Positions 56,021-56,973 of a stretch of 64,000 nt of DNA are shown here, piece after piece. Source of the stretch: Deltaproteobacteria bacterium. GTDB lineage: Bacteria > Desulfobacterota > Binatia > HRBIN30 > JACQVA1. The stretch spans positions 152,448 to 216,447 of the forward strand of contig JACOST010000032.1 in assembly GCA_016178705.1 (NCBI GenBank), given 5' to 3'. The position numbers were made by a program, and so were the translations under genes. The notes under the pieces were generated by a model. The model had not been told where the DNA came from, ran no database searches, and worked only from the letters and a program-made list of their open reading frames with translations. The number at the start of each line of letters is the position of its first letter. The stretch's first letter is position 1.

Positions 56021-56965
56021 ATGCAGAACTTGATCCAGAAGGCCGAGACCCTGCTCGACGCCCTGCCCTTCATTCAAACCTTCGCGGGCAAGACGTTCGT
56101 CATCAAGTACGGCGGCCACGCCATGGTCGACGAAGAACTGAAGGCGAGTTTCGCGCAAGACATCGTGCTCCTCAAGTTCGTCGGCATGAACCCCGTGATC
56201 GTCCACGGCGGTGGCCCGCAGATCGGCGACATGCTCAAGCAGCTCAACATCGAATCGACGTTCGTACGCGGCATGCGCGTCACCGATCAGGCCACGATGG
56301 ACGTCGTCGAGATGGTGTTGGTCGGCAAGATCAACAAGGAGATCGTCACCCTGATCAATCGCCACGGCGGCCGCGCCGTCGGTCTTTCCGGCAAGGACGG
56401 CGATCTGATTCTCGCGCGCAAGCTGAACGTGACAGTCGAAGAGGAAGGCAAGCGTTCGCGGCTCGACGTCGGCCTGGTCGGCGAAGTGCGCGCGATCAAT
56501 CCGATGGTGATCGAGTCGCTCGACCGCAGCAACTTCATCCCGGTGATCGCGCCGGTCGGCGTCGGCGACAAGGGCGAGACGTACAACATCAACGCCGACC
56601 TGGTCGCCGGCAAAGTCGCCGAAGCCTTGCACGCGGAAAAGTTGATTCTGCTCACCGACGTCGACGGCATCCGCGGCGCCGATGGCGCGGTCATGCCCAC
56701 GCTCGATGTCGAGCGCGCGCGCCAATTGATTCAAGATGGCACCATCGGCGAGGGCATGATTCCGAAGGTCGAGTGCTGCGTCGAGGGCTTGCGCGGCGGT
56801 GTGAAGAAGACGCACATCATCGATGGCCGCGTGAAGCACGCCTTGCTGTTGGAGATCTTCACACGCGAAGGCGTCGGCACCGAAGTCGTCCGCACGCTGC
56901 AGCGCGGCGCGACGAAACGGCGCGTGAGTTCTTCCCCCTCTCCCTCTGGGAGAGGGCTGGGGTGA
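56021..56965 (+). CDS. argB: acetylglutamate kinase (repeat-derived C-terminal tail)
   Basis: 314 aa; [18 protein letters not shown]; the tail ..[12 protein letters not shown] and the stop come from the 33-nt repeat. Confidence 0.92.
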
Positions 56966-56968
56966 GGG
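56936..56968 (+). repeat. 33-nt palindromic repeat family copy at the argB / argD junction
   Basis: ccctctccctctgggagagggctggggtgaggg, identical to the 24589 copy. Confidence 0.7.
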
Positions 56969-56973
56969 CGGTC

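Follow-up and report, generated by a model that had tools for sequence, protein, structure and literature searches.

Gene content and repeat copies in the window

The DNA analysed here, referred to throughout as the window, is a 64-kb stretch from the MAG of a groundwater Binatia bacterium. On its plus strand argB is directly followed by argD, while the minus strand carries a DUF35 gene followed by the gene for its thiolase partner, as well as queA. These genes are listed in Table 1 with the copies of a short repeat that they contain or adjoin. At the 3' end of argB the repeat was read directly from the plus strand as the 33-nt element CCCTCTCCCTCTGGGAGAGGGCTGGGGTGAGGG. A 27-mer with up to three mismatches matched three times in the window and not at all in 100 shuffles, which places the repeat far beyond chance, and five copies were recovered with a family profile (nhmmer). 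Three of the five overlapped coding sequence, two of them at operon junctions and one in frame within queA. The ~5 kb adjoining the left edge of the window contained no copies.

Table 1. Genes, repeat copies and repeat blocks, with positions in the 64-kb window
Feature	Position	Strand	Evidence or remark
argB (acetylglutamate kinase), 314 aa	56021..56965	+	TIGR00761, 265 bits
argD (acetylornithine aminotransferase)	56974..58182	+	TIGR00707, 493 bits
Intact copy, argB 3' end	56936..56968	+	encodes last 9 argB codons PSPSGRGLG, TGA, SD-like GAGGG
C-arm CCCTCTCCC	56936-56944	+	sequence
Loop TCT	56945-56947	+	sequence
G-arm 1 GGGAGAGGG	56948-56956	+	sequence
Loop CTG	56957-56959	+	sequence
G-arm 2 GGGTGAGGG	56960-56968	+	sequence
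DUF35 / zf-ChsH2 OB-fold protein (BbsA-like), thiolase partner	51764..52192	-	family match
SCP-x/lipid-transfer-type thiolase	50617..51756	-	ATG at 51756..51754
Second intact copy	51761..51793	-	private variants CCCTCGCCC and loop CAG; gives tail PSPSGRGQG, TGA, GAGGG
queA	23823..24923	-	NF001140, 431 bits
Third intact copy	24589..24621	+	antisense, in frame inside queA
Diverged copy, half of inverted pair in secF-recJ spacer	19788..19820	-	profile match
Diverged long-loop copy, other half of secF-recJ inverted pair	19719..19760	+	profile match

A duplication of one locus was considered as the origin of the two junction copies and rejected, given that their flanks were unrelated and the copies differed at two positions. 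The secF-recJ spacer measured 160 nt, and the inverted pair within it has the layout known from the type A/B pairs of E. coli. A short-read Logan contig from a groundwater run (L121), identical to the window, broke off inside the element (..GGGCTGGGGT) at its 3' end, a pattern typical of assemblies interrupted at a repeat that has many copies in the community concerned.

Repeats of other kinds were also seen in the window. Long arrays of diverged direct repeats, with periods of ~144 nt and ~150 nt, occupied positions 12900-15400 and 32500-34550, the second of these lying inside a large minus-strand ORF (32231..34819). Inverted repeats were located at 46640-46730 (31-nt arms rich in AACGGATT units, 90% complementary, with a 29-nt gap), at 403-535 (53-nt arms) and at 43781-43857 (30-nt arms); all three were apparently intergenic and unrelated to the triplex repeat.

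Identity of the repeat

A full-text literature search with the two G-blocks led to the TM-ECO repeats of E. coli, 23 sequences of which are listed with a three-block layout; the type B copies among them read CCCTCTCCCTGTGGGAGAGGGCCGGGGTGAGGGC, which consists of the same three blocks (Holder et al. 2015, PMC4666352). The repeat was named BoxC, then PIT (potential intrastrand triplex) and later HPG1/HPG2, a "G-quadruplex-hairpin-duplex switch" (Kaplan et al. 2016, PMC5100583), and older work by Bachellier and by Hoyne and Maher is cited within these papers (PMC4666352 / PMC5100583). According to the same sources, the repeat occurs in >260 genomes, the E. coli sequences fold into a triplex or G-quadruplex in vitro, and copies are linked to locally unstable spacers and genome instability. 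The E. coli copies lacked promoter and terminator activity, no triplex was found in vivo, and the copies were described as "always intergenic", with no preferred distance from ORFs or orientation (PMC4666352 / PMC5100583). No mobility genes were found near the E. coli copies (Holder et al., PMC4666352).

In sequence, family members have a C-rich arm CCCTC(T/G)CCC that is followed, after a loop of 3-5 nt, by its complement GGGAGAGGG and, after a 3-nt loop (TTA or C[C/T]G), by a further G-rich block GGGTGAGGG, which makes three blocks for a purine-motif triplex. The element at argB agreed with this description block by block. Positions 56936-56956, CCCTCTCCC-TCT-GGGAGAGGG, gave a 9-bp hairpin (-17.2 kcal/mol), and the second G-block that followed, CTG-GGGTGAGGG at 56957-56968, resembled that of type B, which has a CCG loop (Holder et al.). 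The element was also multi-copy, with conserved stems, variable loops and a distribution across many phyla. Copies in inverted pairs were found both in the window, at 19719-19760(+)/19788-19820(-), and in the argB-argD spacer of two relatives (L123 and L212), where the second copy was inverted. The strictly intergenic location of the E. coli copies was not reproduced, given the coding overlap of three of the five window copies. The element was nonetheless filed in the BoxC/PIT family, since being intergenic merely describes the copies of E. coli and does not enter into the sequence definition. Judged by its sequence, the 33-nt element is therefore identified as a copy of the known and widespread BoxC/PIT/TM-ECO/HPGQ "intrastrand triplex motif" repeat, and not as a new one.

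An Rfam scan of the whole 64-kb window returned no family at its gathering score. The GTAG/CGTC tag that is the hallmark of REP/RAYT systems was absent from the element, and no transposase genes were noticed among the window ORFs examined. RNA folds of both junctions contained the hairpin, with the same stability as dinucleotide shuffles (z = -0.9 and -0.6), and in the minimum-energy fold the tail was partly paired to a C/U-rich stretch upstream. Because these energies were no different from those of shuffles, no structural claim was based on the RNA folds.

Structure of the two junctions

The argB ORF had no earlier in-frame stop and terminated at the TGA at 56963-56965, inside the last block of the repeat. 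This stop was overlapped by GAGGG (56964-56968), which was followed by the spacer CGGTC (56969-56973) and by the argD ATG at 56974; the distance to the ATG was 8 nt from the TGA and 5 nt from GAGGG. The N-terminus of ArgD, MTNRDIIDLG, aligned with orthologue starts (MTNKDIIDLG, MTNQDIIDLG), so that the argD ATG can be regarded as well placed. On the minus strand, the element (51793..51761) carried the TGA (51766..51764) that ends the DUF35 gene. There, too, GAGGG overlapped the stop, and it was followed by CACC and the thiolase ATG at 51756, which lay 7 nt from the TGA and 4 nt from GAGGG. The initial annotation, which had placed the argB TGA and a GAGGG 5 nt before the argD ATG inside the 33-nt element, was correct to the base, and the second junction that it had proposed, built from the same end of the repeat in the same orientation (51761..51793), was confirmed with its TGA and GAGGG before the thiolase ATG.

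Both junctions had the geometry of coupling junctions, i.e., a stop within ~10 nt of the next start and an SD overlapping the end of the upstream ORF. When the 20 nt upstream of each start were paired with the 16S 3' end, the anti-SD duplex had an energy of -8.2 kcal/mol for argD and -8.0 kcal/mol for the thiolase gene, compared with a mean of -6.0 kcal/mol for the genes of the window and a 5th percentile of -6.6 kcal/mol for a background of random sites; in strength of pairing with the anti-SD, the G-rich tail of the repeat is comparable to the better SDs found in the window. A GGAG/GAGG/AGGA core was present at 17 of 37 crudely placed gene starts in the window, against 10% in the background. 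A stop codon occurs in only one of the six frames of the element. Selenocysteine insertion or read-through at the TGA was considered as well, and nothing pointed to either.

The contribution of the repeat to the upstream proteins was apparent from their C-termini. It had been supposed that ArgB canonically ends near ..GVGTEV; this was wrong for the clade, in which repeat-free orthologues continue with a basic tail, and all of the 120 closest ArgB proteins extended beyond that point with such a tail. Repeat-free ArgB at 87-88% identity ended in ..VRATQRGGVARKRLESKRA, proteins without the repeat having ..KRLESKRA as their terminus. The ending ..SPSPSGRG(L/V)G was found only in the closest relatives, and a decayed repeat-derived tail, GAPAPTGRGMG, was also seen among the nearest of them. 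The repeat in argB had replaced only about the last six residues and added a tail of its own. The alignment of ArgB C-termini, a check proposed with the initial annotation, did not refute it, as orthologues without the repeat did not share the tail. DUF35 orthologues normally ended 3-6 residues past YAFxP, with the repeat-derived tail present only at >=87% identity. The DUF35 and thiolase genes of a relative without the repeat (L124) overlapped by 4 nt (ATGA). An ATGA overlap is a classical sign of translational coupling, and from this arrangement it follows that tight coupling at the site would be lost with anything other than a stop-plus-SD configuration.

Conservation, decay and rearrangement in relatives

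Copies at orthologous sites were present in close relatives (L210 and L207, both from JGI sample 3300036760, L212 and L213), whose genes were ~89-94% nucleotide-identical to those of the window. These copies lay at L207:10300-10332 and at L210:4147-4179 and 9417-9449, with others in L212 and L213. The thiolase copy was 33/33 identical in L210, L212 and L213, its two private variants included, and the queA copy was 33/33 identical in L207, while the argB copy, seen in L210 and L212, was 32/33 identical in L210. TGA and GAGGG were kept in the thiolase copy of all three relatives and in the argB copy of L210 and L212. The immediate flanks of the conserved copies differed between the window and the relatives.

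Taken jointly, the three copies were identical at 98 of 99 nt in a relative whose flanking genes had diverged by 6-11%. Equally conserved 33-nt stretches accounted for 7% of those in the respective gene for the thiolase copy, 41% for the argB copy and 4% for the queA copy (joint empirical p ~1e-3). Identity at this level could be due to constraint on the element or to its concerted evolution. Since the queA copy, which is not at a junction, was conserved as well, some constraint may act on the element itself that reuse at junctions does not explain.

In more distant relatives the argB copy was decayed or missing. In L126 the TGA had become TAA and GAGGG had become AAGGC, with the same stop position and the same spacing. 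In L123 (959-1050) a decayed copy was accompanied by the inverted second copy, and argD began 91 nt from the element, while in L212 argD was displaced by 260 nt. Only a remnant was left in L124, and in L122 argB and argD were separated by a 38-nt spacer without the element. As the junction copies occupied the same sites in close relatives and were decaying in more distant ones, they were interpreted as inherited rather than recent. Every relative examined had a rearranged argB-argD spacer, which marks this spacer as a hotspot of change and agrees with the instability known for the repeat family from the literature.

Where argB and argD had been separated (L212 ~4880-5141, L123:959-1050 and L122:3927-3966), the spacer was open in a frame that ran into argD with an ATGA overlap. 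In L212 and L122 this was the frame of argB, and the preceding in-frame stop was the argB TGA. An ATG 6 nt past the element opened 84 codons in L212, and one 5 nt past the element in L123 opened an ORF of ~29 codons in the frame that overlaps argD. Such spacer ORFs may be relay ORFs that preserve coupling, or they may have arisen by chance (~10% for the longest).

Copies within coding sequence

The intact copy at 24589-24621 lies within queA, where it forms an in-frame insert of 11 codons in a variable loop. The insert aligned to a 10-residue gap in Thermus QueA (1wdi), and the loop was hypervariable across 120 orthologues. Neither the Thermus and Thermotoga structures nor orthologues at <=73% identity had the insert, which was present in an orthologue at 90% identity. 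In other lineages the same loop (between ELLxI-R and WxCLGKP) carried long inserts of its own (P0144, P0148, P0152, P0157, P0168 and P0172), some of which were other repeat-like peptides (PLLTKEGSGEV..PPPCPLLRKEG; FPHPNPLP). Several repeat families seem to have found a permissive landing site in this QueA loop.

Outside the window, 10 of 189 foreign copies (~5%) were read in frame within long coding ORFs. Pfam matches confirmed as host genes a YgiQ-type and another radical SAM enzyme, siroheme synthase (CysG) and UvrA. Siroheme synthase had two tandem copies at a domain linker, and UvrA had several copies per gene, including an inverted pair that was read straight through. Loci with translated in-frame copies were found in Rhizobacter (L027), Methylibium (L101), Chloroflexi (L033), Polaromonas (L001) and Hydrogenophaga (L004). 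With these and the queA copy, the description "always intergenic" does not hold outside E. coli.

Distribution and gene context in other genomes

A scan of species-representative genomes located the exact 33-mer in at least 120 loci, from Pseudomonas, Variovorax and other Comamonadaceae, Archangium, Chloroflexota, Planctomycetota, Acidobacteriota, Methylococcaceae, Binatia and others. The 120 foreign loci held 213 family copies when further variants were included; 58 variants differed mainly in the two loops, and the stems were invariant across phyla. Almost no copies were found in 1.35 Mb comprising the argB neighbourhoods of 80 related genomes and the contigs of relatives (L122 onwards), and the element is therefore patchy even within Binatia.

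Gene context was assessed for the 143 foreign copies that had >=700 nt of flank on both sides, with coding ORFs recognised by GC3 periodicity; the set came from genomes other than the host. An ORF-length census and a strict GC3 flank classifier had been dropped in favour of ORF-spanning and nearest-coding-ORF tests. The intragenic count of the strict classifier is a lower bound, since it missed the queA copy. Most foreign copies were plainly intergenic, as reported for E. coli. None of the 143 combined use of the stop with use of the start, as both window junctions do. The tail TGA ended a coding ORF in one of the 76 copies that had a coding ORF upstream. Among 44 copies followed by a coding ORF in the sense direction, the next start lay 0-3 nt after the tail in one, 4-12 nt in one, 13-30 nt in four, 31-100 nt in 20 and 101-300 nt in 18. 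Starts at 4-12 nt from the opposite end of the element were observed in 4 of 39. At the level of the family the junction geometry was accordingly rare, at ~1% for each half, and without orientation preference. The enrichment of this orientation and spacing at gene junctions that the initial annotation had led one to expect was thus absent among these 143 copies, all from other genomes, and the cassette reading fails as a family property.

Isolated instances of either half were seen. The TGA ended a LarC-like gene in one Thermodesulfobacteriota genome (L052) and a gene in Methylibium (L106), and an ATG lay 4-5 nt after the tail in another Binatia genome, where it began an FAD-oxidoreductase gene (L084), and in one Dehalococcoidia genome (L038). 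A further candidate for stop use (L094) was rejected, because its 434-codon "ORF" resembled an antisense artefact.

Interpretation of the junctions

The identity of the repeat and of the adjoining genes, the position of their starts, the geometry of both junctions, its rarity elsewhere and its inheritance in relatives were all observed directly, and they are probably best explained as local reuse of a promiscuous BoxC/PIT repeat at two junctions, and not as the work of a dedicated mobile cassette. In an ancestor of this Binatia lineage, both argB and the DUF35 gene would have acquired a copy at the 3' end that became fixed and took the place of the original final codons, of the stop and of the short spacer between the genes; the route by which the copies arrived is conjectural. 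Read in the sense direction and in one frame, such a copy would supply PSPSGRG(L/Q)G and then UGA, and would leave its terminal GAGGG 4-5 nt before the next AUG, able to pair with the 16S anti-SD and presumably used as an SD. A ribosome finishing the upstream gene would be expected to melt the 9-bp hairpin and, on terminating at a distance from the next AUG of 8 nt in argB/argD and 7 nt in DUF35/thiolase, to expose the SD and perhaps to re-initiate. Translation of the downstream gene would in this way stay coupled to that of the upstream gene, just as ATGA-type junctions would have coupled the two before the repeat was inserted. The stop and the SD would be accidental properties of the repeat sequence, and at a tight junction only those copies in the sense orientation and the right frame could persist. 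The likeness of the two junctions follows from this, since a replaced junction would persist only with a nearby stop and a usable SD, and only the sense, frame-1 configuration gives both. The initial annotation had offered two alternatives, a portable stop-plus-RBS cassette or a repeat that "survives only where it mimics one". The census of copies from other genomes did not bear out the former as a trait of the family; the latter, the reading adopted here, is supported by the single stop-containing frame among six, the SD-like tail, the overlap in L124 and the preserved stop position in L126.

A family selected and spread for delivering a stop and an SD between genes, i.e., a dedicated mobile coupling module, would account for two junctions 5 kb apart with the same end, orientation and frame, for the conservation of both in relatives, for the good pairing of the tail with the anti-SD and for the occasional single uses in other phyla. 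It is nevertheless highly improbable given the foreign copies, which never combined the two features (0/143), used the stop in 1/76 and the start within SD range in 1/44, typically lay 31-300 nt from the next start, and had their opposite end near starts at least as often (4/39). The E. coli copies, all intergenic and without preference for distance or orientation, and the other copies in the window, one intact inside queA and two in an ordinary intergenic inverted pair, argue in the same direction. At the opposite extreme, the copies might be neutral passengers that persist by drift, the TGA being merely the first in-frame stop and GAGGG remaining idle, with argD and the thiolase gene translated through SD-independent re-initiation or other signals. 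The L126 junction, where AAGGC stands in place of GAGGG at the same distance between stop and ATG, suggests that the SD contribution may be dispensable, and the displacement of argD by 91 nt (L123) and 260 nt (L212) and the unexceptional RNA folds are in keeping with passive carriage. Against it stand the anti-SD pairing, which exceeds the window gene mean at both junctions, the spacing of 4-5 nt, which is in the usual SD range, and the better conservation of the copies than of their flanks in relatives, which drift does not predict; the neutral explanation is thought unlikely on balance.

Two further explanations place the function in the element itself, and both are judged doubtful, slightly more so than neutral persistence. 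One holds that it is kept for a structural role in DNA or RNA (triplex, G-quadruplex/hairpin switch, protein site or recombination hotspot) to which the overlap with stop and start is incidental. This would agree with the triplex and G4/hairpin formation in vitro and the local genome instability reported for the family, with stems that are invariant and loops that vary across phyla, with the near-perfect conservation of the three coding-overlapping copies, private variants of the thiolase copy included, and with the argB-argD spacer having been rearranged in every relative examined. It is weakened by the lack of in vivo triplex, promoter or terminator activity in E. coli and by the decay of the argB copy in more distant relatives (L123, L126), and it leaves unexplained that, of six possible configurations, the two junction copies have the same one. 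The other would have BoxC/PIT in this Binatia lineage under purifying selection at the nucleotide level even in coding sequence, which would imply a sequence-specific function or partner, e.g., a coupling hairpin/SD switch or a conserved factor that binds it; with a design that suits codons, the element could spread into genes and junctions in many phyla through some mechanism of mobilisation. To this proposal the 98/99 identity of the three copies lends some weight, as does the make-up of the element, whose 33 nt amount to 11 codons, are open in five of six frames and encode Pro/Ser/Gly-rich peptides.

Comparison with known systems

Local reuse of the repeat, the preferred reading, ties a junction that looked unexplained to a repeat family described since the 1990s, and the copies reported here correct the "always intergenic" generalisation derived from E. 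coli. In bacteria other than enterobacteria, protein tails and loops can be translated from the element, which can also act as a source of stops and SD-like sequences. For annotators, repeat-encoded peptides mark sequence derived from the repeat, not homology. That BoxC/PIT copies can be coding and form stop-plus-SD junctions is mildly new. The conservation of coding copies adds a hint of nucleotide-level constraint, which would be mildly new as well, and if this signal is real, copies embedded in coding sequence offer a convenient place to test constraint on the element.

With the BoxC/PIT/TM-ECO/HPG1-HPG2 repeats of E. coli the element shares the blocks CCCTC[T/G]CCC, GGGAGAGGG and GGGTGAGGG, short variable loops and a length of 33-37 nt, together with many copies, invariant stems, a spread across phyla, inverted pairs and locally rearranged spacers. 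It differs from them in that every E. coli copy is reported to lie between genes, at no set distance from ORFs, whereas three of the five window copies overlap CDS. Like the REPs tagged by GTAG/CGTC (Di Nocera et al. 2013, PMC3733652), which are short palindromic repeats found mostly downstream of genes, which "often provide the stop codon" and which sometimes lie within ORFs (PMC3733652), it can end a gene; unlike them, it has no tag, and no RAYT transposase was noticed in the window ORFs examined. The third block, which is G-rich, and the SD-like tail are specific to BoxC/PIT in this comparison. In-frame insertion at permissive sites that leaves the gene intact recalls the Rickettsia palindromic elements (RPEs); RPEs are ~100-150 bp long and confined to Rickettsia, whereas the present element is 33 nt (11 codons) and pan-bacterial. 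Finally, the junctions resemble classical coupling junctions (ATGA/TGATG), in which the stop is within ~10 nt of the next start and the SD overlaps the end of the upstream ORF, but here both stop and SD come from an interspersed repeat and not from unique sequence. Viewed against these systems, it is a known repeat showing known kinds of behaviour.
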